Positions 12,398-40,996 of a stretch of 64,000 bases of DNA are shown piece by piece. How positions within the stretch are numbered: the stretch's first letter is position 1; every line of letters starts with the position of its first letter. Source of the stretch: Clostridia bacterium (lineage in GTDB: Bacteria > Bacillota > Clostridia > Christensenellales > UBA1242); contig JAZUCT010000011.1 in the NCBI GenBank assembly GCA_045639255.1, positions 14,357 to 78,356 of the forward strand, given 5' to 3'. The notes below the pieces were generated by a model that saw nothing but the letters and a program-made list of their open reading frames with translations, was not told the origin of the DNA and ran no database searches. A program made the position numbers and the translations under genes.

Positions 12398-13888
12398 TTA
12401 ACTGAAAATATCTGTTAAATCACTGTTATCTTCAAGCGGAGTTATTGGTGGCAGATTTTCAAACGGAATATCATCATCAATAATTCCATCACTTGATTTG
12501 TTCGGTTTAACTTGCGGCGCTGAATTTTCAAGCGATTGCAAGTTCATATCACTTTCCAAATTTTCAAAACTTGTAGTTGCGCCATTCCACCTTAACCTAA
12601 CAGTGCCTTGCGGACCATTTCTATGTTTTGCAACAATAAGTTCAGCAACATCACGGTCGGCTTGACCTTCGGTATCTTTATATTGGTCAGGGCGATAAAT
12701 AAACATAACAATATCGGCATCTTGTTCAATTGAACCCGACGACCTTAAATCGCTAAGCACGGGTCTGTGGCCACCATCGGCATCTTTTCTGCTTTCAACC
12801 CCACGCGATAATTGGCTTAGTGCAATAACTGGAACATTAAGTTCTTTTGCAATAATTTTAAGGTTCTTAGAAATATCTTGAACTTCGGCTTGTTCATTGC
12901 CTTCCAATGCTTTTTTGCCTGATTTCATAAGTTGCAAATAGTCAATCATAACAAGGTCAAGCCCACCTTCTTTAAGGGCAAGTCGCCTGCACTTTGAAAG
13001 AATATCCATTGGAGTGTTGGTTGATTTATCGTCAACATAAAGTTTAGCATTGCTAAGTTTTGCGTTTGCACCCCAAAGCAATTTCCATTCGTCTGTTGTA
13101 AGTTCGCCTTTAAGTGCTTTTTCCATGCTTACGCCAGAAACTGAACACAAACTTCTTTGCGCAAGTTGAACCTTAGGCATTTCCAAACTGAACACTGCAA
13201 CTTTTGCACCATTAAGGGCAGCATGATTTAAAATGTTCATGCTTAAACTTGTTTTTCCGGCACCTGGACGGGCAGCAACAATAATAAGGTCGCTTCGTTG
13301 CAAACCATTTGTTATCCTATCAAGCCCAGCAAAGCCAGTGGATAATCCCCTTAAAGAGTTTCTGTCCCTTGCAATTGTATCGAATTTTTTAATAACTTCT
13401 TTTAAACTTTCTGTAAGCAAAGTTAAATCGCTTGCACTTTCTTCTTTTGAAATATCAAATATGCTTTTTTCAGCAAATTGCAAGGCTTCTTGCTTGCTTG
13501 CATTGTTATAAGAAAGGTCAATAATTTCACTGCTTGCTTTAATTAATTTCCTTAACACACATGCATCTTTAACAATGTTAAGATAAGTGTTAAAGTTAAC
13601 AGCACTTGGAACAATGTAAGTAAGGCTTGTTATATAATCAATTCCGCCCACTTCACCAAGTTTTCCGGATTTTTCAAGGCTGTCCACAAGTGTTACAAAA
13701 TCAATTGGTTTCCTTGTGTTATAAAGTTCTTGCATATGCGAAAAAACAATTTGATGCGCTTGTGAATAGAAATGCTCGTCTGTTAGCACAGGAACAATAT
13801 CCATTGAAATTGTGTTATCAATAAGAACACAACAAAGCAGTGCTTGTTCTGCTTCAATGCTGTGTGGCATGGTTTTTGCAATTGCCAT
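12398..13888 (-). CDS. dnaB: Replicative DNA helicase DnaB with an acidic C-terminal extension
   Basis: PHSIEAEQALLCCVL N-terminus, Walker A ARPGAGKTS, and the IDYLQLM, SQLSR and IEQDADIV motifs. Confidence 0.9.
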   Translation of the reverse strand: MAIAKTMPHSIEAEQALLCCVLIDNTISMDIVPVLTDEHFYSQAHQIVFSHMQELYNTRKPIDFVTLVDSLEKSGKLGEVGGIDYITSLTYIVPSAVNFNTYLNIVKDACVLRKLIKASSEIIDLSYNNASKQEALQFAEKSIFDISKEESASDLTLLTESLKEVIKKFDTIARDRNSLRGLSTGFAGLDRITNGLQRSDLIIVAARPGAGKTSLSMNILNHAALNGAKVAVFSLEMPKVQLAQRSLCSVSGVSMEKALKGELTTDEWKLLWGANAKLSNAKLYVDDKSTNTPMDILSKCRRLALKEGGLDLVMIDYLQLMKSGKKALEGNEQAEVQDISKNLKIIAKELNVPVIALSQLSRGVESRKDADGGHRPVLSDLRSSGSIEQDADIVMFIYRPDQYKDTEGQADRDVAELIVAKHRNGPQGTVRLRWNGATTSFENLESDMNLQSLENSAPQVKPNKSSDGIIDDDIPFENLPPITPLEDNSDLTDIFS

Positions 13889-25054: not shown

Positions 25055-25537
25055 CTATTTCTTTTCACTAACCTGAGAAAGCACGCAAGCCAAACTGCGA
25101 ACTGGTGCTTTAAGCATACCAAGCAATTGAGCAATAAGCACTTCTTTTGAAGGAAGTTTTGAAAGTTTTTCAATGTAACTTAATTCAACAGCTTTGCCGT
25201 TAACAATGCCACCTTTTGCAGAAAGTTCCTTAATATCTTTCATTGCGTTGTAAGCAATTCTTGGTGCGCCAACTTCATCTTCATAACTGAATGCAATTGA
25301 AGTGTTGCCTTCAAGAACTTTATCAAAGCCTTCAATGTTAAGGTCTTTTAAAGCAAGGTTAATAAGTCTGTTCTTATAAACTTTATATTCACCGTTTTCT
25401 TTTCTGAAAGCGTTTCTAACTTTGTTATCTTGTTCAACAGTTAAACCGGTGTAGTTAAGAAGAACAACTGATTTTGCATTGGAAATTTTTTCTTTAATTT
25501 CTTCAACAATTTGTTGTTTTGCTGTTTTGTTAGACAT
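25055..25537 (-). CDS. rplJ: 50S ribosomal protein L10
   Basis: 160 aa, immediately upstream of rplL. L10 pattern (VVLLNYTGLTVEQDNKVR). Confidence 0.95.
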   Translation of the reverse strand: MSNKTAKQQIVEEIKEKISNAKSVVLLNYTGLTVEQDNKVRNAFRKENGEYKVYKNRLINLALKDLNIEGFDKVLEGNTSIAFSYEDEVGAPRIAYNAMKDIKELSAKGGIVNGKAVELSYIEKLSKLPSKEVLIAQLLGMLKAPVRSLACVLSQVSEKK

Positions 25538-25708
25538 ACAATTTCCCCCTTTATAATTTAAGAAAAAAATAAACCCTTATGCCATATTAAAGCATAAGGG
25601 TTTTATAAAAAACACTTATAAATTAACCTCGGTAAGCAACCAAAATGGAAATTATATTGCATTGAATTGCAAAACTTACTGTCTATGGCAATAAAAACTT
25701 ATTAAATT
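25538..25708 (-). promoter_or_regulatory. rplJ leader with an intrinsic terminator/attenuator (candidate L10 leader)
   Basis: About 170-nt leader between the promoter and the SD. Contains the hairpin AAACCCTTATGC...GCATAAGGGTTT (25571-25603) followed by a T-run on the minus strand, about 25 nt before the rplJ ATG. Confidence 0.5.
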
Positions 25709-28571: not shown

Positions 28572-30091
28572 TTATTCCTTTTTTATTATAAGTTTATTTC
28601 CAAATAATCGTTTTAAAACCTGCAATTTTTTATTTTTTTCGGTTTTTTGGTCTGTTTCAATTAATATATCATGGTTTGGCAGATATTTTGAAACAATATT
28701 TTGCAAAGTTTTAAGGTTTTCTGGCACTTCCATAAGATTTTTATTGCTTTCACCAGCAAAAATTATGAACTTATTGTTTTCAATTTTCACTTCGGTAACT
28801 TCACCACAAGCAACAAACAAAATGCCAGTTTTATTGTTTCTAAGTTCGGTTATCACCTTGCCCCACACTGAATTAGGTGAAACTTGTGAACTTTGTTTTG
28901 GCAAAGCGGGGCTTTGCTTTGCCTTTATTCGTTTTTTAGTATGTCTGCAATTTGTTGTTCAATTTTGTTAAAGCGATTTTCAATATCTTGCAAATTAAAG
29001 TTATTTTCGGTTAAAATTGCTTCCAAACTTATTGTTTCAAAAGCAATTCGTGGATTGCTTGCAAATTTTAAAGTTTGCTCGGCATTGCCAAACTTTTCAA
29101 GGCAAGAAAGCAATTTTGAAACGCTTGCAGTTTTTGCTTGCTGTTGCATTTTTTCAAAAACATCGGCTGGCAGGTTAAGAAGCAAGTTTGCATTTTCGCA
29201 ACTGTTAATAAGCACCAAATCTCTGAAATGATTGGTTAAATCACGGTTTAACATATTAACACTTTTTCCGCCCGATAGAATTTCGGTAAGAAGTGTTATA
29301 TAAGCATTAACATTTTTGTTTAAAATATATCCAACAAGTGAAATTAAAGTTTCTTTGCTGGCAGATCCCAACACTTGCAAGGTTTTTGAAAAAGTTACAT
29401 TGTTTGCACAGTAACTTGCACACATATCGGCAACTGAAAGTGCATCACGCACACTGCCTTCGCCCGCTTTTGCAATAAGGTCAAGGGCAGGTTCTTCATA
29501 ACTTATTCCGCTTTCGGCATAAACTTTGCCAATGTGTTTTGCAAGTTCAACATAATCCACCAATCTGAAATCAAACCTCATGCAACGGCTTAAAATTGTT
29601 GCAGGAAGTTTTTGAACTTCGGTGGTTGCCAAAATGAAAACTGCGTGTGCAGGTGGTTCTTCCAAAGTTTTTAAAAGTGCGTTAAATGCACTGTCGGTTA
29701 GCATATGAACTTCATCGATTATATAAACTTTATATTTGCCAACAACTGGTGCATATTTAACTTTTTCCCTTATTTCCCTGATTTCATCAACACGGTTATT
29801 GCTGGCAGCATCAATTTCCAAAATATCCATATTTGCTGGGTTAGAAAGTGCTTTGCAGGCTTCACATTCAAGGCAAGGTGAACCGTTAACCGAATGCAAG
29901 CAATTAATGGCTTTTGCAAAAATTTTTGCGCAAGAAGTTTTGCCTGTTCCCCTTGTTCCAGTGAATAAATAAGCATGGCTTATTGCATTGTTTTTAATTT
30001 GGTTTTGCAATGTTGTTGTTATGTGATTTTGCCCCACAACTTCTTCAAAAGTTTTTGGGCGATATTTTCTGTAAAGTGCCAAATAACTCAT
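28572..30091 (-). CDS. dnaX: DNA polymerase III tau/gamma (DnaX). Two frames joined by a putative -1 frameshift at 28937..28931
   Basis: ORF1 (28925..30091; start ATG 30091 after AAAGGAAG) carries the AAA+ clamp-loader domains (GTRGTGKTS, zinc module CxxCxxC, DEVHML, SRC). ORF2 (28572..28904, open upstream in the -1 frame) has the pattern I associate with the DnaX C-terminal domain (VWGKVITELRNN...). The frames meet at A_AAA_AAC. Confidence 0.8.
28900..28937 (-). promoter_or_regulatory. Candidate -1 programmed ribosomal frameshift signal in dnaX
   Basis: The minus strand reads CTA_AAA_AAC GAA TAA. The heptamer A AAA AAC is at 28937-28931, followed by a 7-nt spacer and the hairpin GGCAAAGC-AAAGCCCC-GCTTTGCC (28923-28900). 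Confidence 0.6.
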
Positions 30092-30204: not shown

Positions 30205-30459
30205 TTATTTTTTTCCATCTTGTTTAAGTGAATTTTCAAGTTGTTTAATTTTATCAAAGTTTTCTTGCATTTTGGAAAGCAAAATTTCACTTTCAAGTTC
30301 TAGGGCAAGCACTTGTTTATCGAATTCAACAATATTTCTATCTTGCTTAACTTTTTGCAAAACATCGTTTCGTTTTTGTTTAAGTTCGTTTAACTGCAAA
30401 ATAAGTTTTTGTTGAATATCCAATGCTTTTTCATATTCTTTAAATTGTTCTTTATTCAT
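30205..30459 (-). CDS. Small coiled-coil protein, unknown function
   Basis: 84 aa, heptad-rich and K/E/Q/L-rich, with no recognisable motif. Lies 4 nt downstream of the LRR paralog. Confidence 0.4.
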   Translation of the reverse strand: MNKEQFKEYEKALDIQQKLILQLNELKQKRNDVLQKVKQDRNIVEFDKQVLALELESEILLSKMQENFDKIKQLENSLKQDGKK

Positions 30460-30463
30460 ATTG

Positions 30464-33403
30464 TTACCTCTCTAACTCGTCACTTTTATAAACAACATAT
30501 TGGTTATCAAAACTATCCCCCGCATAACCTTTGCCATCTAAATCATACGATCCATAGTTAATTGGCTTATACACTTTGCTTTTTTTGTTATATTTCAAAA
30601 TAACACTTGTTAAATCGTTTCTGCCCATTCCAACAGTTATTATTTTAAGCGGTTTTTTGTTTTCTTGGTTATATTGTTCCATAAATGCCCTTGCACCAAG
30701 CATAAACTTTTCATAAATTTCTTCTTCATCGTTTTCATAAATGTTAAAGTTGCAAACTTCAACATTGTTAAACACTGCATAACCTTGTTCTTTGTTAACA
30801 TAAAGGGTGGATTTTGCAATAATGGTTCCTTTATTGTTTCTTATAACCAAATTTTGCACGCTTGGGTGAATAATGCTGGCACTCATAATGCCTGCGCCCA
30901 TACCTTCAAGGTGTGCACAGCAGTTGCAAAGCTTGCCCAAAACAAAGTTGAGTGGGTCGGCTTTGTTTAACCATTCAAAAGTGAAGTTTTCTGCCGTGTT
31001 AACAGCGCTGTTAACTGAATTGAAACAAAAATTTTCGCATTTGTTAAGGTTTGAATCAAGTTTGCTAAGTTTATTCAAATAAATATCTTCATTAAGTGGT
31101 GAAGACAAAATGTTATCCTTAATTTTTTCTTTAAAGTTAATATATTTTTTATGTTTTTTTATTTCTTTAAGGTTGCCCGATTCAATGGCTGCAAGAACTT
31201 CATACATTTTAATAAGGCTCAAATTATTTTTCAGTTCATAACCCATTTTGTTGGCATTAATTATTCTTGCATTATTAAATGCCCTTTGTGAATCGTCAGC
31301 AGCAAAATATTTAAGCACAACTTTTGCAATATGTTGGTTGTGTTCGTTAACCCCAATAAGTTGCCTTAATGCATAGTTATAGAAATGTTCAACCGTTGGT
31401 TTAAGTTGGCGTTGCGAACCTTTATTGCTGGTGTTAGATTCTTGAATTTCTTCAAAGTTGTTATAACTTCTTGAAATAAAGCCTGTAACTTCTTTTTCCG
31501 CTTTCCACATTTCATCAAAAATATATGTGTGCTTATCCTTTTTGGAAATCAAGAAGTCTGTGAATTCTTTTTTAAATCCATAAATTTTCATATCCTTAAA
31601 TGCATCAACCAAATCTTCAACGGTTATATTTCTGTTGGTTAAAATAAAGGTTAAAAATTCTGAAATTTTTTGGTCGTAACTTATTTGCGTAACTTTTCCG
31701 CTTGCCGATTTGGTTTCATATGTTAAATTTTGAAAACCACCAAGATTATAGAAAAGCACACTTAAAAATTCCTTATCAAAACTGCCAAGCGCATACATAT
31801 TATCGAACTTCTTTTTAAGGGTTGCAATGAATTTATCGAACCAATCGAAGTTTAACAAATTAATAAATTCAACAAAACTTTTGCTTTGGTTGAGATGTTC
31901 TTTTGGAATAAAAATTAAGGAATTAACATAATCAATGTTTTTAATAATTTTTTGAAGATTTGAGTTGTTCCAATTGTTTAAAAAATCGAAAATAGTGCAA
32001 TTATAAGCGGTGTTTAATCTTTCTTGTGCTAAATTAATTTTTTCGAAATTTTTTAAACCAATTTTTTCATAATTTTCCCTGAACTGCATATCGTTCCAAT
32101 TTCTTAAAAAGAAATTTGCAAACCCGCTTCCCCTTACTTCAACATAATCGTTGCTTATTATTTTATTTGAAGTGAAAAACTTGTCGCCAATTTTACAAAT
32201 ATATTTTAATGCGCCACCTTTTTCAATGTTGCAAGTTGGCGAAATTTCAAAATAATCAAGTTTATGGCTATCTTCAAATGCATTTTCTTGAATGTTATAA
32301 AGGTTTGTTGGCATATTAATAATTTTTTCAATGTTAAAACAACAGTTGAAACAATCTTCTTCAATAAGTTTAAGGTTTGAACCTTCTTCAAATTCAACAG
32401 TTTTAAGTTTTTTGCAAATAAAAAATAATGATTTTGAAAGTGATGTTGCTTTGTTTGGAATTATAACACTTTCAAGGTTTGAACAAAGTCTAAAAACTTC
32501 GTTTGAAAAAGTGAAACTGTTTTCAAGTTTTGAAATGTTTACAGTTTTTAAGTTTGTGCAAGTATCAAAAGCATTGTTTTCAATTCTTTCAAGTTCGCCA
32601 GAAATGTTAACGCTTTCAATGTTTGATTCTGCAAAAGCAAACGAACCAATTTGTTTAAGTTTTTTAGAAAACTGAACTTCTGTTAAACTTTTACAACTGT
32701 AAAAAGCATTTTCGTTAATAAAAGTTACTTGCGATAAATCTGCACTTTTCAAACTTTCACACATTTTAAAACAATCAATGCCAACATAGTTAACAGAACT
32801 TAAATTTTCAAGTTCTTCAAGGTTAACACAATTTTTAAAGCAATCGTTTTCAAGTTTAATGCCTTCACTGAATTCAAGCCCATTTTTTAAAGCAAATTCT
32901 TGTTTTTGGTTTTGCGTTTTAAATTGAACCTGTTTTAAATTTTTGCAACCAAAAAATGCACCGCATTTTATTTGGTTAAGCATTTCAGGCAATGTTATTT
33001 GTTCCAAACCGCAATTATAAAAAACATGTTCTTCAATAACTTTCATTGTGCTTGGCAGTTGAATTGATTTAAGATTTGCACAATCTGCAAAAGCAAACTC
33101 GTTAATAAGTTTAACTGTTTTTGGCAAAACAACTTCTTGCAAACTTTTGCAATAATTAAAAGCATACTTGCCAATTTCAAGTTCAGGGTTTTTAAAAACA
33201 ACTTTTTTTACAGGCGAAAACGAAAATGCTTTGTTGTTAAGCGAAACATTTTCAGGAACTTCAATTTCAAATTCTTGTTGGCAATTTTCAAAAGCATTTG
33301 AGCCAATAAATCTTACCCCTTTCCAAAACTTTTCAGGATTTTTTGAAAGCAGTTTTAAATCGGCATCGGTAACTTTTAAAAGAACACCATTTTTCTTTTT
33401 CAT
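30464..33403 (-). CDS. Large BspA-type leucine-rich-repeat (LRR_5) protein with an unrecognised conserved C-terminal region, paralog 1
   Basis: 979 aa with no signal peptide. The N-terminal ~400 aa consists of repeats of the form AF.nC.sL..i.lP..v..I...aF. The C-terminal half is collinear with 35313..38189 (GSQRQLKPTVEHFYN; FEWLNKADPLNFVLGKLCNCCAHLEG). Confidence 0.65.
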   Translation of the reverse strand: MKKKNGVLLKVTDADLKLLSKNPEKFWKGVRFIGSNAFENCQQEFEIEVPENVSLNNKAFSFSPVKKVVFKNPELEIGKYAFNYCKSLQEVVLPKTVKLINEFAFADCANLKSIQLPSTMKVIEEHVFYNCGLEQITLPEMLNQIKCGAFFGCKNLKQVQFKTQNQKQEFALKNGLEFSEGIKLENDCFKNCVNLEELENLSSVNYVGIDCFKMCESLKSADLSQVTFINENAFYSCKSLTEVQFSKKLKQIGSFAFAESNIESVNISGELERIENNAFDTCTNLKTVNISKLENSFTFSNEVFRLCSNLESVIIPNKATSLSKSLFFICKKLKTVEFEEGSNLKLIEEDCFNCCFNIEKIINMPTNLYNIQENAFEDSHKLDYFEISPTCNIEKGGALKYICKIGDKFFTSNKIISNDYVEVRGSGFANFFLRNWNDMQFRENYEKIGLKNFEKINLAQERLNTAYNCTIFDFLNNWNNSNLQKIIKNIDYVNSLIFIPKEHLNQSKSFVEFINLLNFDWFDKFIATLKKKFDNMYALGSFDKEFLSVLFYNLGGFQNLTYETKSASGKVTQISYDQKISEFLTFILTNRNITVEDLVDAFKDMKIYGFKKEFTDFLISKKDKHTYIFDEMWKAEKEVTGFISRSYNNFEEIQESNTSNKGSQRQLKPTVEHFYNYALRQLIGVNEHNQHIAKVVLKYFAADDSQRAFNNARIINANKMGYELKNNLSLIKMYEVLAAIESGNLKEIKKHKKYINFKEKIKDNILSSPLNEDIYLNKLSKLDSNLNKCENFCFNSVNSAVNTAENFTFEWLNKADPLNFVLGKLCNCCAHLEGMGAGIMSASIIHPSVQNLVIRNNKGTIIAKSTLYVNKEQGYAVFNNVEVCNFNIYENDEEEIYEKFMLGARAFMEQYNQENKKPLKIITVGMGRNDLTSVILKYNKKSKVYKPINYGSYDLDGKGYAGDSFDNQYVVYKSDELER

Positions 33404-33474
33404 ATTTTAACTCCGTTAATATTATAAAACACCATTAAGTTAAAGTCAATATCCACTTTGTTTTATTGATATAA

Positions 33475-34077
33475 CTAAAACAAACTTTTTAAAAAACTTA
33501 GTTTTTGTTTTATGCGTGAAATGCTGTTATAAACACTTTTTGGTGTGGTGTTTAAAACAGAAGATATTTCTGAAATTGAAACACCTTCAATATATAAATT
33601 AAAAACTTTTTGTTCGGCCTTTGAAAGTTTTTGTTTAATGTTTTCTAAAATTTCTTGTGCCTGACTTTTTGAAATATATTCTTCTTCTGGTGAATTATCG
33701 CTTGAAGGCAACACAACAAATTGCGGGGTGTTGTTTTCTTGCATAATTTTAACTTTACCATCTTCGGTAACTTCCATAAACTCGTTAAGTGGTAAGTTTT
33801 TAAGGCGGTTTGCACTTTTAACTGCATCTTGAATGTTTCGTTCAATGCACAAAGTTGCAAAAGTTTTAAAACTGCAATTTTGCTGTGCCGAAAAATGCGT
33901 GATTGCACTGAAAAGCCCTATCATGCCTTCCTGAATTAAATCGTCAATTGTGCCACCAACAAGAAAATATCTGCGGGCAATTTTGTTAACAAGTTGCTTG
34001 TTATCTTCCAGCAAAAAGGCAATTTCTTGCTGAGTTAAGCAATCGAAATTTAAATTTTCATACTTAAAATTGTTCAT
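33475..34077 (-). CDS. sigH: RNA polymerase sigma factor SigH-like (sigma-70 family)
   Basis: 200 aa. ...RRYFLVGGTIDDLIQEGMIGLFSAITHF...SFKTFATLCIERNIQDAVKSANRLKNLPLN parallels B. subtilis SigH. The context mrnC-rlmB-sigH is conserved in Firmicutes. Confidence 0.8.
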   Translation of the reverse strand: MNNFKYENLNFDCLTQQEIAFLLEDNKQLVNKIARRYFLVGGTIDDLIQEGMIGLFSAITHFSAQQNCSFKTFATLCIERNIQDAVKSANRLKNLPLNEFMEVTEDGKVKIMQENNTPQFVVLPSSDNSPEEEYISKSQAQEILENIKQKLSKAEQKVFNLYIEGVSISEISSVLNTTPKSVYNSISRIKQKLSFLKSLF

Positions 34078-34080
34078 AGC

Positions 34081-34803
34081 CTAACACCTTTGCCTGTTTG
34101 CTTCAAACACCGCCACCCCACAAGCAACGCTTGCGTTAAGGCTGTTAACTTTGCCTTGCATTGGAAGTGTTAACACTGCATCGCACAAGTTTTTTGTAAG
34201 TTTTGAAACACCAAAACCTTCACTTCCAACAACAATTGCAATTGCACCTGTTAGGTTTTGTGAATAAATGTTTTCGCCACCAAGTTCAAGGGCATAAACC
34301 CAAACATTTTGTTGTTTCAAACTTTCAATTGCATTGTTAAGGTTTGTTACCCTTGCAATTTTAACATGGTTAATTGCACCAGCACTTGTTCGGCTTACGG
34401 TTTCTGTTACACCAACACTGCGGTGTTTTGGAATAATTATGCCATCAACATTTGCACATTCGCAAACACGAATAATGCTTCCAAAATTGTGCGGATCTTG
34501 AATTCCATCAAGAATAACAATAAATGGTGGTTTGTTTTTTTGTTTTGCGTTTTGCAAAATATCTTCCACTTCGCAATAATCAAATTCTTGTGTGAATGCA
34601 ATAAAATTTTGGTGGTGTTTTGTTTTGGATTTGCTATCAAGCACCGATTTTGAAACATATTGAATGTTCACTTTTTGTTCCCTTGCCATTCTTAAAATGC
34701 GGGCACTCATGTTATCGGTGGGATTTGCAACTGTTAAAATTTTATCCAATTCCCTTTTTGCTGAAAGTGCTTCGAAAACACTGTTTTTTCCTTCAAGTTG
34801 CAT
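34081..34803 (-). CDS. rlmB: TrmH-family 23S rRNA 2'-O-methyltransferase (RlmB/YacO)
   Basis: 240 aa. SpoU motifs ILDGIQDPHNFGSIIR, IVVGSEGFGVS and SLNASVACGV. Confidence 0.85.
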   Translation of the reverse strand: MQLEGKNSVFEALSAKRELDKILTVANPTDNMSARILRMAREQKVNIQYVSKSVLDSKSKTKHHQNFIAFTQEFDYCEVEDILQNAKQKNKPPFIVILDGIQDPHNFGSIIRVCECANVDGIIIPKHRSVGVTETVSRTSAGAINHVKIARVTNLNNAIESLKQQNVWVYALELGGENIYSQNLTGAIAIVVGSEGFGVSKLTKNLCDAVLTLPMQGKVNSLNASVACGVAVFEANRQRC

Positions 34804-35207
34804 TAAAAATTCTCCTTAAACAAAATTTCAAAAATTTCTTCAATTCGTGTGTTTTGATTTGAAATATATAAATAACCAATAAGTGCTTCAAATCCCGTTG
34901 CGTTCTTATAATCTTGAAGTGAACTGTGTTTTGCTTTGTTGTTGGTTTTATAGTTAACTGCACGACGAACCACATCTTGTTCTTCTTGTGTTAAATGTGG
35001 TGTTAAATTTTTAATCATTTCACATTGTGCGCTTGCTTTAACAAAAGTGTTTGCTGTTTTGTGAAGTGCGTTTGTTTTTTGGTTGCCTTTTGAAACAAGC
35101 CTGCTTCGAACATAAACCGAAAACACTGCATCGCCAACAAAAGCAAGTTCTTGGCTGTTAATAAGGCTTGCTTGAAATGGCGAAAAATTTTTAAATTGTT
35201 CAAACAT
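34803..35207 (-). CDS. mrnC: Mini-ribonuclease III
   Basis: 134 aa. LAFVGDAVFSVYVR RNase III signature and small size. Its stop overlaps the rlmB start. Confidence 0.8.
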   Translation of the reverse strand: MFEQFKNFSPFQASLINSQELAFVGDAVFSVYVRSRLVSKGNQKTNALHKTANTFVKASAQCEMIKNLTPHLTQEEQDVVRRAVNYKTNNKAKHSSLQDYKNATGFEALIGYLYISNQNTRIEEIFEILFKENF

Positions 35208-35312
35208 AATTAAATATTTCCTTTAATAATTAATTATAGCATTTAACTTAACAAAACGCAACCTTAAAAATTTAACAAAAAACAAGGCAATGCCTTGTTT
35301 TAAATTTATAAT

Positions 35313-38189
35313 TTAAAGTTCAATTTCTGCATCGGTAAGTTTAACAAGCACATGTTGTTTATCAAGGCTGTCACCGGTGTAGCCACATTTATCAACATCA
35401 TATTCGCCATAGTCAATGGATTTATATATTTTTGATGAAGCGTGGTTTGCCCTTATAATATCATATAAATCATTCCTATCCATTCCCACAGTTAAAATTT
35501 CAAGTGGTTTTGAATTTTCTTTGTTATATTGCTTAAAAAATGCCCTTGCACCAAACAAAAGTTTTTCATAAATTTGTTGTTTGTTTTCGTTTTGATTAAA
35601 AGCAACTTGAACGGTGTTGAACACGCCATAGCCTTGTTTTCTGTTAACATAAAGGGTGGCTTTTGCAACAATTTTGCCTTCGCCATCACGCACAACCAAA
35701 TTTTGAACATCTGGGTGAATTATGCTTGCATTCATAATGCCATATCCTGCACCTTCAAGGTGTGCACAGCAATTGCAAAGTTTGCCAAGCACCAAATTAA
35801 GCGGGTCGGCCTTGTTAAGCCATTCGAAAGAAAATTCGTTGTTTGCAATGTTTGTTAAGTTCTGCAAAGTTTTAACGCTTAAATCTTGGCATTGTTTAAT
35901 TTTTGCATCTAAAACACTAAGTTTATCCAAACAATCTTTTTCGCTAAGGCTTGTTGAAAGAATGTTTTCGCCAGCAATTTCGCTTTGCTTTTTAAGTTTA
36001 TAATGCATTCTTAATTTTCTTAATTGCTCTTTGTTACCCGATTCAATGGCATCAAAAATTTCTTTCTTCTTTTCTGCGCTTATGTTTTCTTTCAGTTCAT
36101 AACCCAAACGATTTGCATTAATTTCCCTTGCAAAATCAAAGGCTTGTTGGGCAAAACTGCCTTGATAATATTTTTTAACAATTTTTGCAATATGTGTGTT
36201 GTGTTCAGTTATTCCATCTATTTTAAGAAAAATGTTATAAAAACTTTCAACGGTTGGTTTAAGTTGTTCTTGCGAACCACGATTTCTGGTGTTTGCCAAT
36301 TGCACTTCTTCAAAGCAGTTATAACTTTCAGCAATGAACGAATCGAATTCTTTTGAAACTTGCATCATTTCATCAAAAGTTAAAGTGTGCCTATCTTTTC
36401 GGCTTAAAAGAAAATCTGTGAATTCTTGTTTAAAACCTTCAATTCGCATATCATAAAACTTATAAACAAGTTTTTTGGTTGTAAGTTTTCCGCTTAAAAT
36501 TAAGTTTGAAAAAAATTCACTTACTTTTTGGCCATAATCAACTTCGCCATGCGGGGTTTCAACAATTTTTTCCATTCCGCCAAGGTTAAAAAATATTTTA
36601 AACAAAATTTCTTTTTCAAAGTTTGAAAGAAATTCAATTCCAATATCCTTTTTTCTAAGCGTTGAAACAAAAGTGTTAAACCATTTAAGCGAAAGTTCGT
36701 TTGCAACATCAACAATGTTTTTGTTTTGCCAATTACTTACAACTTTATAAACATCAATATTAAGAAACTCGGCATTTTTTATTAATAATTTAACGCTTGG
36801 TAAATCGCGTTTATCAATCAAATCGGTTAAAACTGTTGAAAACTTAAAAACATCTTCTGCATAAAATTTTTTTGCAACTGTTAGTATTTTGTTAAGTTCA
36901 TCTTCACTTATTTTTTCAAAGTTTTGCCTGAAAGTTTTGTTATTCCAGTTTTCAATAACCGAAACTGCAACACCTGAATTTATGCCAAGTTTAACCCAAT
37001 CGTTGCCCATTGGTTCTGATGAAGTAAAGAACTTGCCATTCACTTTGCACAAATAAGTTAAAAGCGCACCTTGGCTTATGTTATTGTTGTTTAAGTTGTT
37101 AATGTTGCGTGGAATTTCAAAACATTTAAGTTTTGAACAACCAGCAATTGCATCTTTTTTAATAATTAAATTTTGTGGTTTAAAATTTTCAAACTGTTCA
37201 AGTTCACAGCAGTTTTTAAAGCAATCGGCTTCAAACAACATTATATGTGCATCTTCAAATGTAACTTTTTTAAGATTGGTGCAATTTTCAAACAATCCCC
37301 TTGAAATTGTGGTTAATTTTTCTGGAATATAAATTTGTTTTAAATTTTCACAATCGGCAAAACATCTTTCACGAATATATATTGATGAATATGCACTTTT
37401 GTTGTTAAGATTAATGTTTTCAATAAACTTACATTTTGCAAATGCAAATTTTCCCAACACCCAAAGTTTTGTGTTTGAAAAATCAACGCTTGTAAGTTCG
37501 GTGTTATAAAAAGCATTATCTTCAATTGCGTGCAATTCTTCATAGAATTTAACTTTGCTAAGCGACATGCAATTCATAAACGCTTTTTTAGGAATAAGTT
37601 TTAATAAAGATAAATCTATTTCTTTTAATTCAAAACAATTTTCAAAACAAGCATCTTCAATGTTAATAACATTTTCAAAATTTTTAACTTCTTCAAGGCT
37701 TACACAATTTTTAAAGGCTTCGTTTTTAATAAAAATAACATTTGTGAAAATTTCAGTGTTTTCTTGTTGTTTTGGAAACTCAACTTTTTTTAACTTTAAA
37801 CAATTTTTAAATGCAAAATCACCAACCGATTTAACAGAATTTGGCAAAGTTATTTCTTTAAGCCCACTTCCGTTAAAGCAATTAACACCAATTTCTGCAA
37901 TTGTGTTGGGCAATTCAACCTTTCTAAGTTGCGAACAACCCATGAACAAACTTTCTGGCAACTTAACAAGTTTTCTGTTAATTTTAACAAAGTTAACATT
38001 GCTTTGGGCAAATGCATAGTTAAAAACATTAACCATTGCAGGCACTTCAATATCAAACGATTTAAGGCATTTTTTAAATGCATATTCGCCAATTGCCAAA
38101 ACATTTTCCCAGAATCTATCTGGGTTTTTGTTAAGCAATTCTAAATCGGCATCTTTAACTTCTGTTAAAATGTGATTTATTATTTTCAT
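35313..38189 (-). CDS. Large BspA-type LRR protein with the same conserved C-terminal region, paralog 2
   Basis: 958 aa, collinear with 30464..33403 from the N-terminus (VKDADLELLNKNPDRFW) to the C-terminus (FEWLNKADPLNLVLGKLCNCCAHLEGAGYGIMNASIIHP). Confidence 0.65.
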   Translation of the reverse strand: MKIINHILTEVKDADLELLNKNPDRFWENVLAIGEYAFKKCLKSFDIEVPAMVNVFNYAFAQSNVNFVKINRKLVKLPESLFMGCSQLRKVELPNTIAEIGVNCFNGSGLKEITLPNSVKSVGDFAFKNCLKLKKVEFPKQQENTEIFTNVIFIKNEAFKNCVSLEEVKNFENVINIEDACFENCFELKEIDLSLLKLIPKKAFMNCMSLSKVKFYEELHAIEDNAFYNTELTSVDFSNTKLWVLGKFAFAKCKFIENINLNNKSAYSSIYIRERCFADCENLKQIYIPEKLTTISRGLFENCTNLKKVTFEDAHIMLFEADCFKNCCELEQFENFKPQNLIIKKDAIAGCSKLKCFEIPRNINNLNNNNISQGALLTYLCKVNGKFFTSSEPMGNDWVKLGINSGVAVSVIENWNNKTFRQNFEKISEDELNKILTVAKKFYAEDVFKFSTVLTDLIDKRDLPSVKLLIKNAEFLNIDVYKVVSNWQNKNIVDVANELSLKWFNTFVSTLRKKDIGIEFLSNFEKEILFKIFFNLGGMEKIVETPHGEVDYGQKVSEFFSNLILSGKLTTKKLVYKFYDMRIEGFKQEFTDFLLSRKDRHTLTFDEMMQVSKEFDSFIAESYNCFEEVQLANTRNRGSQEQLKPTVESFYNIFLKIDGITEHNTHIAKIVKKYYQGSFAQQAFDFAREINANRLGYELKENISAEKKKEIFDAIESGNKEQLRKLRMHYKLKKQSEIAGENILSTSLSEKDCLDKLSVLDAKIKQCQDLSVKTLQNLTNIANNEFSFEWLNKADPLNLVLGKLCNCCAHLEGAGYGIMNASIIHPDVQNLVVRDGEGKIVAKATLYVNRKQGYGVFNTVQVAFNQNENKQQIYEKLLFGARAFFKQYNKENSKPLEILTVGMDRNDLYDIIRANHASSKIYKSIDYGEYDVDKCGYTGDSLDKQHVLVKLTDAEIEL

Positions 38190-38274
38190 TGTGTATCTCC
38201 ATTTTTATTATAAATAATAACCCCCTGAAAGTCAATATCCAATTTTTTAACAACGCTTATTTTAAAAATATAAT

Positions 38275-38303
38275 TTGACTTAATTATTTAATGTTGATAT
38301 AAT
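38275..38303 (+). promoter_or_regulatory. Strong sigma-A promoter upstream of metG
   Basis: TTGACT (38275-38280), 17-nt spacer ending in TGa, TATAAT (38298-38303). Confidence 0.7.
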
Positions 38304-38384
38304 TTAAGCATGAAAACAAATTTTCAAGTGCAACAACAACTTTAAAAAGCATAGCGCCCCTATGCATTTTTGTGATAAAAAATG

Positions 38385-38431
38385 TGTTGCCAATCAAATA
38401 AATTTTAAGGCAACAAGCAGTTGCCTTTTTT
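38385..38431 (+). promoter_or_regulatory. Candidate attenuator in the metG leader (mutually exclusive hairpins)
   Basis: GGCAACA (38409-38415) can pair with the upstream TGTTGCC (38385-38391). Alternatively AAGGCAAC (38407-38414) pairs with the downstream GTTGCCTT (38420-38427), which is followed by a T-run. The SD GGAG is at 38436. Confidence 0.4.
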
Positions 38432-38446
38432 AATTGGAGAATTTTT

Positions 38447-40450
38447 ATGGAACTTGATGAAAGATTAAAACGCATGATGGAAAACCGCCCTAAGTTTAAA
38501 CCCCGTGCAATAATAACTGGCGGAATGCCTTATGGAAACAAAGAACTTCACTTTGGGCACATTGGTGGAATGTTTGTTTTTGCCGATGTGTATGCAAGAT
38601 TTTTGCGTGATAGAATTGGCAAAGAAAATGTTATTTTTGTTTCGGGCACCGATTGTTACGGAAGCCCTGCAATGGAAGGCCACAGAAAACTTGTTGAAGC
38701 AGGTAAGTTTTGTGGAAGCATTGCAGACTATGTTAAATCTAACCACCTAAAACAAGTTGAAACCTTTAAGGATTATGAAATTTCGCTTAACTTTTTTGGT
38801 GCAAGTGGGTTTGGTGAAGCAAAAGAAATTCACGCACAAATGGGAAAAGATATTTTTTCGGCACTATATAAAGCAGGTGCAATTAAAAAACTTGAAACTT
38901 TGCAGTTCTTCGATGAACAAGCAAAAACCTTTCTTAACGGCAGGCAGGTTGTTGGAAAATGCCCAGTTGAAGGTTGCCAAAGCGAAAAAGCATATGCTGA
39001 TGAATGCGATTTAGGGCATCAGTTTATGCCAAAAGAACTTATTAACCCAGTAAGCACCCTATCTGGTTCAACACCAGTGCTTAAAGCAATTGCAAATTGG
39101 TATTTCAGCCTTGAAAACTTTATTCCACAATTAAAGGAATGGAATGATTTAAACACAAAACTTCCATTTGCACGCAGTTATGCGCATAAGGAAATGAACG
39201 AGTTTTTGAAGAAACCTGAAATTTATATTAAAAAGGAAAGTTTGGAAACTTTTAAACAACTTATGCCACAACTTGCACCTTGCGAAATAACCGATTTAAA
39301 CAAACCAAGTTTCACAGTTATTTTTGATAGGTTGGAAGATAGGGAACAGGCTTGTGAAGTTTTAACCACCAAAGGTGTTCGATATAGAACTGGCAAAACA
39401 TTAACACCGTTCCGCCTTTCTGGCAACATTGAATGGGGTGCGCCTATTCCTGAAATTGAAAATCACCCAGAAATGAATGGTTTAACATTTTATGTTTGGC
39501 CAGAAAGTTTGTGGGCACCAATAAGTTTCACAAAAACATATTTAACCAAACTTGGCAAACCTGAAAACGAATGGAAAAATTGGTGGTGCAGTGAAGATTG
39601 TGAAATACATCAGTTCATTGGCGAAGATAACCTTTATTTCTATGGCCCAGCGCAACACGCAATGTGGTTTGCAATGAAAAACGATGATGTTATGGGCGGG
39701 CTTAACAGTTCAAGAATTATTTCAAACAAGCATATATTATTCTTAAACACAAAAGCAAGTTCCAGCGGTGCGGTTAAACCACCAATGGCACACGAACTTT
39801 TAAATTTCTACACCGCAGAACAACTTAGGGCACATTTCTTGGGTTTGGCACTTGGAAACAACAATGTTTCATTCATGCCAAAACCATATAACCCAAATGC
39901 AACCGCAGAAGAAGTGGACCCAGTTTTAAAAGATGGCAATTTGTTCACCAATGCCTTTAACCGTGCAGTAAGAACTTTATTCTATACAGTTCAAAAAGAG
40001 TTTAACGGGGTTCTTCCAACCGGCGAAGTGGATAACGAAGTTTATTCAACCTGCATTAATGCAATTTTGAATTATGAACGATTTATGTATCAAAACAAAT
40101 TCCACCAAGTAAGTTATGTTTTAGATGAATTTATAAGGGGAATAAATAAATACTATACAAAAGCACAAAAGGTTTATGAAGAAACACAAAACATTGCCGA
40201 CCTTAAAACTGCAATTGTAAATTTGGCAGAACTTGTTAAAGTTGCAACCATTCTTTGCCACCCAGTTGTGCCAAGCGGAAGTGAAAAAATTTGCGAATAT
40301 TTAAATGTTAACAAAGAAAAATTTTATAACTGGAATTTCATTTTTGAACCACTTTCATTCTTCTGTGAAAACAATCATAAGTTAAAAGAAATTCCTCCAC
40401 GCTTCGATTTCTTCAAAAAACATGAAAGTCAATTTGAAAACAAGGAATAA
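38447..40450 (+). CDS. metG: Methionine--tRNA ligase-like class I aaRS (divergent KMSKS)
   Basis: 667 aa. PYGNKELHFGHIGG (HIGH region), a knuckle GKCPVEGCQSEKAYADECDLGH, and WPESLWAP. The KMSKS position reads KASSS (39752-39766). Confidence 0.75.
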   Translation: MELDERLKRMMENRPKFKPRAIITGGMPYGNKELHFGHIGGMFVFADVYARFLRDRIGKENVIFVSGTDCYGSPAMEGHRKLVEAGKFCGSIADYVKSNHLKQVETFKDYEISLNFFGASGFGEAKEIHAQMGKDIFSALYKAGAIKKLETLQFFDEQAKTFLNGRQVVGKCPVEGCQSEKAYADECDLGHQFMPKELINPVSTLSGSTPVLKAIANWYFSLENFIPQLKEWNDLNTKLPFARSYAHKEMNEFLKKPEIYIKKESLETFKQLMPQLAPCEITDLNKPSFTVIFDRLEDREQACEVLTTKGVRYRTGKTLTPFRLSGNIEWGAPIPEIENHPEMNGLTFYVWPESLWAPISFTKTYLTKLGKPENEWKNWWCSEDCEIHQFIGEDNLYFYGPAQHAMWFAMKNDDVMGGLNSSRIISNKHILFLNTKASSSGAVKPPMAHELLNFYTAEQLRAHFLGLALGNNNVSFMPKPYNPNATAEEVDPVLKDGNLFTNAFNRAVRTLFYTVQKEFNGVLPTGEVDNEVYSTCINAILNYERFMYQNKFHQVSYVLDEFIRGINKYYTKAQKVYEETQNIADLKTAIVNLAELVKVATILCHPVVPSGSEKICEYLNVNKEKFYNWNFIFEPLSFFCENNHKLKEIPPRFDFFKKHESQFENKE

Positions 40451-40455
40451 TAATT

Positions 40456-40959
40456 ATGGAAAATAACATTAATAATCAAAACCAGAACGAAAATGAAAAT
40501 GAAAACGAAAACAAAGATTTTGATTTTAAATCACTTTCAAAACCACAAAAAACAGGCATAATTGTTATAATTGTTGCAATTGCAATTGTTGCAATAATTC
40601 ACGAATTTTGTGTTACATTTTTAACAAAAACCACATTCAGCATTGCAACTGCACTTGAACCTGTTTTGTTTGGTTTAATTGGGCTTTTGGTGCTTTATTC
40701 AATTGTTGTTGGTGCAAAACAATCCAAAAAACAAAAAGAAGATATAAAACATTCAGCCGATATTTTTGAAAACAGCATTAACCATGATATTTTTAAAACA
40801 AGCGAAAATCTTAAAGAAACTTCACACAAAGCCGAACATGTTATTAACAACGAAAAATGCGAAGTTATAATTGAAAAACCCACAAAAAAATGTTCGTTTT
40901 GTGGTGCAAGCAATCCAACATCTGCAAAACATTGTGATTGCTGTGGAAAAAGGCTTTAA
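40456..40959 (+). CDS. Membrane protein with an Asn/Glu-rich N-terminus and a C-terminal zinc ribbon
   Basis: 167 aa with two TM helices and a C-terminal CSFCG...CDCCG. The N-terminal NQNQNENENENEN is encoded by a hexanucleotide repeat. Confidence 0.5.
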   Translation: MENNINNQNQNENENENENKDFDFKSLSKPQKTGIIVIIVAIAIVAIIHEFCVTFLTKTTFSIATALEPVLFGLIGLLVLYSIVVGAKQSKKQKEDIKHSADIFENSINHDIFKTSENLKETSHKAEHVINNEKCEVIIEKPTKKCSFCGASNPTSAKHCDCCGKRL

Positions 40960-40963
40960 TAAA

Positions 40964-40996
40964 TAAAAAAAAGAACCGCATTGGTTCTTTTTTTGT
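40964..40996. terminator. Bidirectional terminator
   Basis: AAGAACC-GCATT-GGTTCTT hairpin (40971-40989) between an A-run and a T-run, between convergent genes. Confidence 0.65.

Follow-up and report, generated by a model that had tools for sequence, protein, structure and literature searches.

The window analysed here is a stretch of 64,000 nucleotides (nt) from a Clostridia bacterium of the Christensenellales (contig JAZUCT010000011.1, positions 14,357 to 78,356), which contains two paralogous genes for large leucine-rich repeat (LRR) proteins. These belong to an extensive family which joins an N-terminal LRR_5 domain to a conserved C-terminal module, is mostly encoded in tandem arrays with a recurrent small partner gene, evolves under purifying selection and has no linkage to sigH. 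Tentatively, and with a confidence just short of an even chance, we read its members as cytoplasmic, LRR-guided transferase or adaptor proteins which would work with the small partner.

The two genes, their parts and the adjacent small gene are the following.

30464..33403, minus strand: paralog 1, 979 amino acids (aa), with LRR_5 domain, linker, helical middle domain and predicted GNAT-fold domain (from the open reading frame (ORF), Pfam and an AlphaFold2 model)
32204..33322, minus strand: BspA-type LRR_5 region of paralog 1, aa ~28-400, PF13306 in four stretches
31799..32203, minus strand: variable linker of paralog 1, aa 401-535, mostly of low confidence or disordered in the model
30989..31798, minus strand: conserved helical middle domain of paralog 1, aa 536-805
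31394..31435, minus strand: family-conserved loop NTSNKGSQRQLKPT of this middle domain, aa 657-670
30467..30988, minus strand: predicted divergent GNAT-fold domain of paralog 1, aa 806-979
30911..30928, minus strand: CNCCAH loop of the predicted GNAT-fold domain, between helices α1 and α2, aa 826-831
35313..38189, minus strand: paralog 2, 958 aa, with the architecture of paralog 1
37056..38108, minus strand: LRR region of paralog 2
36639..37055, minus strand: linker of paralog 2
35841..36638, minus strand: middle domain of paralog 2
35316..35840, minus strand: predicted GNAT-fold domain of paralog 2
35760..35777, minus strand: CNCCAH loop of paralog 2
30205..30459, minus strand: small gene, 84 aa, helical and coiled-coil-like, starting 4 nt after the stop codon of paralog 1

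The two large proteins form a single collinear BLASTP alignment from end to end (419 of 998 positions identical, 42%, 700 bits), and residues 1-30 are 57% identical. An earlier note on this DNA, made from the sequence alone, had described two collinear LRR paralogs of about 960-980 aa with a common N-terminus, and both statements hold. No third copy was found in the window by tblastn. Residues ~28-400 of both proteins match PF13306 (LRR_5) with E = 3.5e-70 for paralog 1 and 2.7e-59 for paralog 2; the scores of 234 and 199 bits exceed the gathering cut-off of 27.7, and both are therefore members of that family. The identity between the paralogs differs by region: the linker (31%) and the LRRs (36%) are the least alike, the middle domain reaches 47% and the predicted GNAT fold 64%.

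The ~580 aa which follow the repeats have no match in Pfam, NCBIfam, PADLOC or the sequences of the PDB, neither as single sequences nor as a 17-member profile (0 matches for the profile search of PDB sequences), and only chance-level matches in PHROGs (E >= 0.17). An AlphaFold2 model of aa 401-979 of paralog 1, based on an alignment of 121 sequences, reached a predicted local distance difference test score (pLDDT) of 81.5 and a predicted template modelling score of 0.76. Within the model most of the linker (model residues 1-108) lies below pLDDT 50, and residues 140-579 are mostly above 90. The middle domain, which has a pLDDT of 90.3 when modelled alone, has no relative in the PDB according to Foldseek (best E = 0.7, all template modelling (TM) scores below 0.25) and no sequence match in Pfam or the PDB. 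Its loop NTSN(K/R)GSQRQLKPT is conserved in the family, with the G, Q and T invariant or nearly so in the alignments A1, A2 and A4.

The terminal domain is predicted with pLDDT above 90 to have the topology β-α-α-β-β-β-α-β-α-β, which corresponds to the GNAT core β1-α1-α2-β2-β3-β4-α3-β5-α4-β6. All of the top 50 Foldseek matches in the PDB are GNAT acyltransferases (3lod, Gcn5/PCAF, SpeG, RimL, Naa40), with E values of about 1e-3 and TM scores, normalised to the target, of 0.4-0.59; in the BFVD search viral GNATs match the domain with TM scores up to 0.65. The likeness to these acyl-CoA N-acyltransferases lies in the predicted fold of the last ~175 aa, whereas the family has no sequence similarity to them, lacks their β4-α3 motif and carries a CxCCxH loop of its own between α1 and α2. 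The terminal fold is, as far as the model goes, GNAT-like; membership in a GNAT sequence family and the use of acetyl-CoA are not supported. The earlier note described about 550 aa of conserved non-repeat sequence behind the LRRs. The assignment of LRR_5 repeats to ~400 aa stood, but a tail of entirely unknown nature did not, given the predicted fold of its last ~175 aa.

The invariant or nearly invariant polar residues concentrate in the predicted GNAT-fold domain. In the numbering of the modelled region (400 has to be added for the residue of paralog 1) C428 and C429 of the CxCCxH loop are invariant, and C426 and H431 occur in at least 90% of the 121 sequences; CxCC is present in 117 of 120 homologues. 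Further conserved polar residues are K414, N419, K424, Q450, N451, K464, T466, N470, Y475, N479, Y511, N512, N529, D563 and Q568.

A search with the C-terminal region yielded more than 149 homologues. Nearly all of them consist of LRR_5 repeats followed by the module, and a few short ones carry the module alone. The GNAT-fold domain forms the C-terminal part of proteins of 570-1,350 aa, and the match to the module ends at the C-terminus or within ~30 aa of it in 150 of the 150 matches listed. An exhaustive profile search found 1,054 representatives of clusters at 50% identity with E <= 1e-3, 472 of them with E <= 1e-30. In the data with one genome per species the family occurs only in metagenome-assembled genomes (MAGs) of uncultured organisms. 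The carriers labelled Clostridia are Christensenella-like bins, Candidatus Onthoplasma and bins from roe deer and rabbit; other carriers are labelled Bacilli, "Tenericutes" or Erysipelotrichaceae. The family was thus found here only in MAGs of uncultured low-GC gut Firmicutes. A lineage-specific system had been suggested before: the restriction to a lineage is supported, but with some 1,054 clusters the family is not a small one.

Between the two paralogs of the window the synonymous divergence (dS) is saturated and the ratio of nonsynonymous to synonymous divergence (dN/dS, omega) is uninformative. Selection was therefore measured on 39 pairs of orthologues from related MAGs for which dS was usable. 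Omega is 0.1-0.33 for the LRRs, 0.06-0.27 for the middle domain with one outlier of 0.72, and 0.02-0.35 for the GNAT-fold domain, with 0.02-0.2 in most pairs. All parts of the protein are functional and constrained, and purifying selection acts on the orthologues. The constraint is looser in the LRRs, but these show no arms-race signature at the scale of gene regions. Defined pairs of LRR-GNAT genes are kept across many species.

The fetched loci contain 136 copies of the C-terminal domain, mostly in tandem, and arrays of two to five genes are typical. The MAG RGIG3965 (JAFTMY01) from roe-deer caecum encodes at least 14 family copies (loci L006, L013, L017, L018, L025 and L028), eight of which lie on one contig of 49 kb. 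The pairing seen in the window is therefore the rule among these loci, and the small coiled-coil gene which the earlier note had pointed out 4 nt past paralog 1 recurs as well: helical ORFs of 71-90 aa lie -35 to +12 nt after the last copy in 15 further loci, which together with the window and the locus of the closest homologue (L078) makes 17. L078 reads copy, copy, 80-aa gene with nothing between the copies, and its 80-aa protein is 48% identical to the 84-aa protein of the window (E = 3e-18). Because of this arrangement we regard the small gene as a true recurrent partner gene of the family copies and a tandem pair followed by the small gene as the ancestral layout. The 84-aa protein has no Pfam match, and PADLOC returned only noise (E = 0.014-0.017). 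Another small ORF of 90 aa, unrelated to the coiled-coil partner, is found 160 nt past a family copy in L001 (7510-7782) and also in L002 and L013; it has internal repeats of the type YE(I/V)xGxF(I/V)K.

Neither paralog of the window has a signal peptide, a transmembrane helix or an LPXTG motif according to a simple hydropathy and motif check. The highest Kyte-Doolittle mean over 19 residues is 1.09 in paralog 1 and 0.87 in paralog 2, and both N-termini are charged. The 210 full-length family members include one with a hydrophobic N-terminal window, two with a transmembrane-like window and none with LPXTG. The family proteins are accordingly predicted to be cytoplasmic. The absence of export and anchor signals had been noted before for the two window proteins, and it extends to nearly all of the 210 members.

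How such proteins might work can be sketched as follows. The LRR domain would pick a cytoplasmic protein target, and the middle domain together with the GNAT-fold domain would perform a common chemical or binding step on it. This step would most likely be the transfer of an acyl or related group, in which the Cys/His loop would either hold a metal or take part in the catalysis. For the small helical protein a role in regulating the conserved module or in its assembly is conceivable, which would account for the fact that one copy is enough for an array. As for the history of the locus, the order copy, copy, small gene probably came first, and mrnC-rlmB-sigH would have ended up between the copies in this genome. 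The IpaH/SspH NEL (novel E3 ligase) proteins follow an analogous logic, as their N-terminal LRR recognises the target and is fused to a C-terminal catalytic module with one or more essential cysteines. The LRRs of the family are in contrast of another type, there is no secretion-system context, and by prediction the proteins do not leave the cytoplasm of the bacterium. No NEL fold is among the top 50 PDB Foldseek matches listed for either model.

Several points weigh against the reading as LRR-guided transferases or adaptors. The GNAT assignment depends on a predicted structure and on weak Foldseek scores; sequence and profile methods detected no GNAT similarity, and 17 members had no GNAT match in Pfam or NCBIfam even at E <= 10. 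Motif A (Q/R-x-x-G-x-G/A) is absent, as the loop between β4 (475-483) and α3 (490-514) is unconserved and free of glycine in the 121 sequences. GNATs bind the pyrophosphate of acetyl-CoA at this loop, and the domain may rely on a different donor or have no catalytic role. The small gene is missing from most arrays, including the whole subfamily of gene pairs in "Bacilli" MAGs, and the 84-aa protein scores weakly (6.3 bits, rank 3 of 501 against shuffles) with a hidden Markov model of the other small proteins. The absence of export signals was judged from simple hydropathy and not with a dedicated predictor. LRR targeting, the transfer step and the action of the small protein are, finally, proposals.

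One alternative, to which we give roughly one chance in five, is a conflict system for phage defence or for conflicts between mobile elements. Here the LRR would sense a protein of the invader, the GNAT-fold module would be a toxic transferase and the small protein an antitoxin or immunity factor. In line with this are the tandem arrays of several copies whose LRRs diverge, the 14 or more copies of a single MAG, the small gene set tightly against the last copy in 17 loci and one family locus amid transposases. Purifying selection however acts on the orthologues including their LRRs (omega 0.1-0.33), many species keep defined pairs, and loci lie inside housekeeping operons (ileS, the ftsZ/dcw cluster, dnaX). 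PADLOC-DB v2 has no family for either of the large proteins, and no copy was found in phage and plasmid collections by tblastn of the C-terminal region or in a scan of viral contigs. The comparison with known GNAT toxins is likewise divided. In TacT-TacA and AtaT-AtaR a GNAT toxin gene stands beside a small partner gene, and TacT and AtaT acetylate aminoacyl-tRNA. The family resembles such pairs in having a GNAT-fold gene with an overlapping or abutting small partner gene, but here the predicted GNAT fold is the tail of a protein of ~1,000 aa, and the partner lies downstream, is coiled-coil-like, occurs in a minority of the arrays and matches no known antitoxin family. The window genes do not have the form of a stand-alone GNAT toxin of ~170 aa with an antitoxin of the ribbon-helix-helix or DUF1778 type.

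The same alternative draws on structural matches to phage and plasmid proteins. The best viral match is the uncharacterised phage protein A0A7G9A3X2 (BFVD, E = 5.5e-9), and several PcfJ-like phage and plasmid proteins match too; the PcfJ of pCF10 sits among anti-defence genes. The PcfJ-like matches in BFVD cover 400-550 columns with E = 6e-3 to 3e-2, a probability of 0.35-0.97 and weak TM scores of at most 0.36. By eye, the PcfJ-like proteins (PF14284) share with the family a C-terminal domain of ~150 aa with a Cys/His loop after the first helix. They are encoded on mobile elements, whereas the phage, plasmid and viral collections contain no copy of the family. The relationship was further examined with a comparison set of pCF10 PcfJ and eight phage PcfJ-like proteins. 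Pfam recognises PcfJ in this set, with 149 bits to PF14284 for pCF10 PcfJ itself, but has no such match in the family, and hhalign of the family against PcfJ gave a probability of only 0.1-0.4% with two settings. When homologues were sought with the PcfJ domain, close relatives from Enterococcus were all that came back. Membership in the PcfJ group is for these reasons not supported; there may be a distant structural relationship, judged from models. In pCF10 (L081:15874-17984) pcfJ overlaps a gene annotated as Cas9 inhibitor of the AcrIIA9 family, with ArdC-like and DpnD/PcfM genes near by, and in the Polaribacter phage Freya_3 (L090) a PcfK-like gene precedes the PcfJ-like gene.

About as probable, and hence also doubtful, is a non-enzymatic scaffold, in which the GNAT fold would be a pseudo-enzyme or binding module and the proteins would serve as LRR-based adaptors or as platforms for assembly; in some clades AAA+ and ankyrin proteins might work with them. 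The missing acetyl-CoA motif and the lack of sequence similarity to active GNAT families speak for it, as does the synteny of the "Bacilli" pair with an ankyrin protein and an AAA_5-type ATPase in at least ten loci and down to 40% identity. On the other hand invariant residues of a polar or reactive kind (Cys, His, Lys, Asn, Gln, Tyr, Asp) are numerous in the GNAT-fold domain, and its very low dN/dS (0.02-0.2 in most pairs) is as expected of an active site.

The "Bacilli" subfamily itself (L055, L057, L059, L061, L064, L071, L077, L079, L095, L096; for example L095:1760-6173 and 13021-13737) comprises a pair of LRR-GNAT proteins of ~1230-1300 aa and ~995 aa. Upstream of the pair there is always a divergently transcribed cluster for an ankyrin protein (244 aa), an AAA_5-type ATPase (595 aa) and an unknown protein of 288-459 aa. 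In most loci an unknown gene of 119 aa lies in between, and an unknown gene of 238 aa usually lies downstream of the pair. The ATPase is conserved down to 40% identity. The cluster matches no PADLOC system and is absent from the window.

A more far-reaching idea, to which we attach a low probability, is a repertoire of LRR receptors. The paralogous LRRs would each recognise a different intracellular protein, self or invader, and deliver to it a novel type of Cys/His-dependent GNAT-fold transferase along with the unprecedented helical domain, tuned by the small coiled-coil partner and in one clade by the AAA+/ankyrin module. If true, this would be a previously unknown system of protein targeting or surveillance specific to reduced-genome gut Firmicutes.

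It is improbable that the family consists of BspA-like surface or secreted adhesins which leave the cell by a non-classical route. The LRR_5 repeats are best known from the surface proteins BspA, LrrA and HupY/LrrG, the host lineages are gut-associated, and the N-terminal ~400 aa are bona fide LRR_5 as in Tannerella BspA and the streptococcal HupY/LrrG. The NCBIfam equivalog for HupY/LrrG gives however only weak and partial matches (74 and 47 bits, with the cut-off at 1,250), in which the repeats alone align. In contrast to those adhesins the window proteins lack a signal peptide, an anchor and a transmembrane helix, as do nearly all of the 210 members. They have a high cysteine content (25-26 per protein), and the family carries a conserved C-terminal module of ~450 aa with an enzyme-like predicted fold, which the adhesins do not have. 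The suggestion of the earlier note that these are not ordinary surface adhesins is supported; their family has multiple copies, is confined to a lineage and is predicted to be cytoplasmic.

The genes between the two paralogs and the putative promoters of the paralogs are as follows.

33475..35207, minus strand: block of genes for a SigH-like sigma factor, RlmB and mini-RNase III, not part of the family module and lying between family copies in this genome only
33475..34077, minus strand: gene of the sigma-70 family, best NCBIfam matches to SigH models with 130-132 bits, below the cut-offs of 208-295
34081..34803, minus strand: rlmB, passes TIGR00186 with 238 versus 160 bits
34803..35207, minus strand: gene for mini-RNase III (mrnC), Pfam Ribonuclease_3 with E = 5e-25
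33421..33455, minus strand: promoter-like site of paralog 1, TGGATATTGACTTT, N17 and TATAAT, ending 18 nt before the ATG, with a GGAG Shine-Dalgarno sequence after it
38207..38241, minus strand: site of the same kind at paralog 2, made up of the identical 14-mer TGGATATTGACTTT and TATAAT, with its end again 18 nt before the ATG

The paralogs do stand on the same strand on either side of sigH-rlmB-mrnC, as described before, with the reservation that the sigma gene is SigH-like and below the SigH cut-offs. The placement itself turned out to carry no general meaning. None of the 77 other loci has a sigH homologue within 10 kb of a family copy, and family genes are found next to ileS, at the end of the dcw/ftsZ cluster, near dnaX and in transposon-rich regions. 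In the window the 84-aa ORF is followed by dnaX, an ORF of 110 aa, ybaB and recR, and metG lies divergently upstream of paralog 2. A near relative with 84-86% nucleotide identity to the window (amino acid identity 96% for RecR and 89% for DnaX) keeps the synteny up to 30156, where the gene upstream has a CPCGSGKKYKNCCGAK tail at its C-terminus and is, by this mark, SecA-like; on the metG side synteny is restricted to 38274-40971, and a Band_7 gene precedes metG. Because sigH is found in none of the 77 loci and synteny breaks at both paralogs, the bracketing of sigH-rlmB-mrnC is a recent and local arrangement.

Both promoter-like sites read TTGACT-N17-TATAAT, which is near the consensus, and the 14-mer TGGATATTGACTTT occurs nowhere else in the window at 0 mismatches. 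This extended -35 block is identical at the two paralogs although the synonymous sites of the coding regions are saturated, and it may be the site of a shared regulator or the signature of a strong promoter. As far as can be judged from consensus matches, own promoter-like sites are consistent with an independent and possibly co-regulated expression of the two genes.

A functional coupling with sigH-rlmB-mrnC, by which the paralogs would belong to or regulate an operon related to translation or sporulation, is very unlikely and was rejected on distribution: the same strand, the short gaps, the lack of a terminator-like site between paralog 2 and mrnC, and RNA-modification genes beside family copies elsewhere (a PF10672 methyltransferase gene and a PseudoU_synth_2 pseudouridine synthase gene in L003, the 283-aa methyltransferase-like gene as in L003 also after a family copy in L016 and L021, weak SpoU matches in L026, L045 and L047) are outweighed by the 0 of 77 loci, by L078 without any gene between the copies, by the broken synteny of the near relative and by the own promoter-like site of each paralog, and such adjacency is expected by chance in small genomes dense in translation genes.

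Some further features were recorded. The dnaX-ybaB-recR operon has a conserved insert without annotation, the 110-aa ORF between dnaX and ybaB (28572..28904, minus strand); its counterpart in the near relative L091 shows 71% identity and has no Pfam match on record. An ORF of 167 aa (40456..40959, plus strand) starts 5 nt after metG and has an N-terminal low-complexity run NQNQNENENEN, a hydrophobic middle and a zinc-ribbon-like C-terminal tail with CxxC...CxxC; NCBIfam has no match for it, and the counterpart in L094 is 49% identical. The sole Rfam family at gathering score in the window is the L10_leader (RF00557, 51.9 bits) at 25559..25706 on the minus strand, upstream of rplJ (25055..25537). 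An ORF of the near relative L094 (13919-20458) exceeds 2,196 aa, runs off the contig and shows weak LRR similarity to paralog 1 (23% over ~340 aa). In L037, L038 and L080 (L080:12726-14765) a family gene directly follows ftsZ and is overlapped by 29-32 nt by an ORF of 679-680 aa with no Pfam match on record; addB- and addA-like genes come next.

LRR_5 and GNAT are as such known folds. Neither Pfam, NCBIfam and PADLOC nor the searched literature describes the combination of predicted cytoplasmic LRR_5 repeats, a helical domain without relatives, a predicted GNAT fold with CxCCxH but without motif A, and a small partner gene; nothing relevant was found in this literature on LRR_5 with GNAT, on BspA with acetyltransferase or on PcfJ-like proteins. 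With 14 or more genes of ~3 kb, as in one MAG, the family can occupy a notable share of a small genome. The size of the family, this share and the purifying selection together indicate that uncultured gut lineages invest heavily in these proteins. The module offers a defined target for asking what the predicted Cys/His GNAT fold transfers or binds and what the LRRs recognise, and the family may show in what way gut Firmicutes with reduced genomes control or modify proteins, be they their own or those of an invader.

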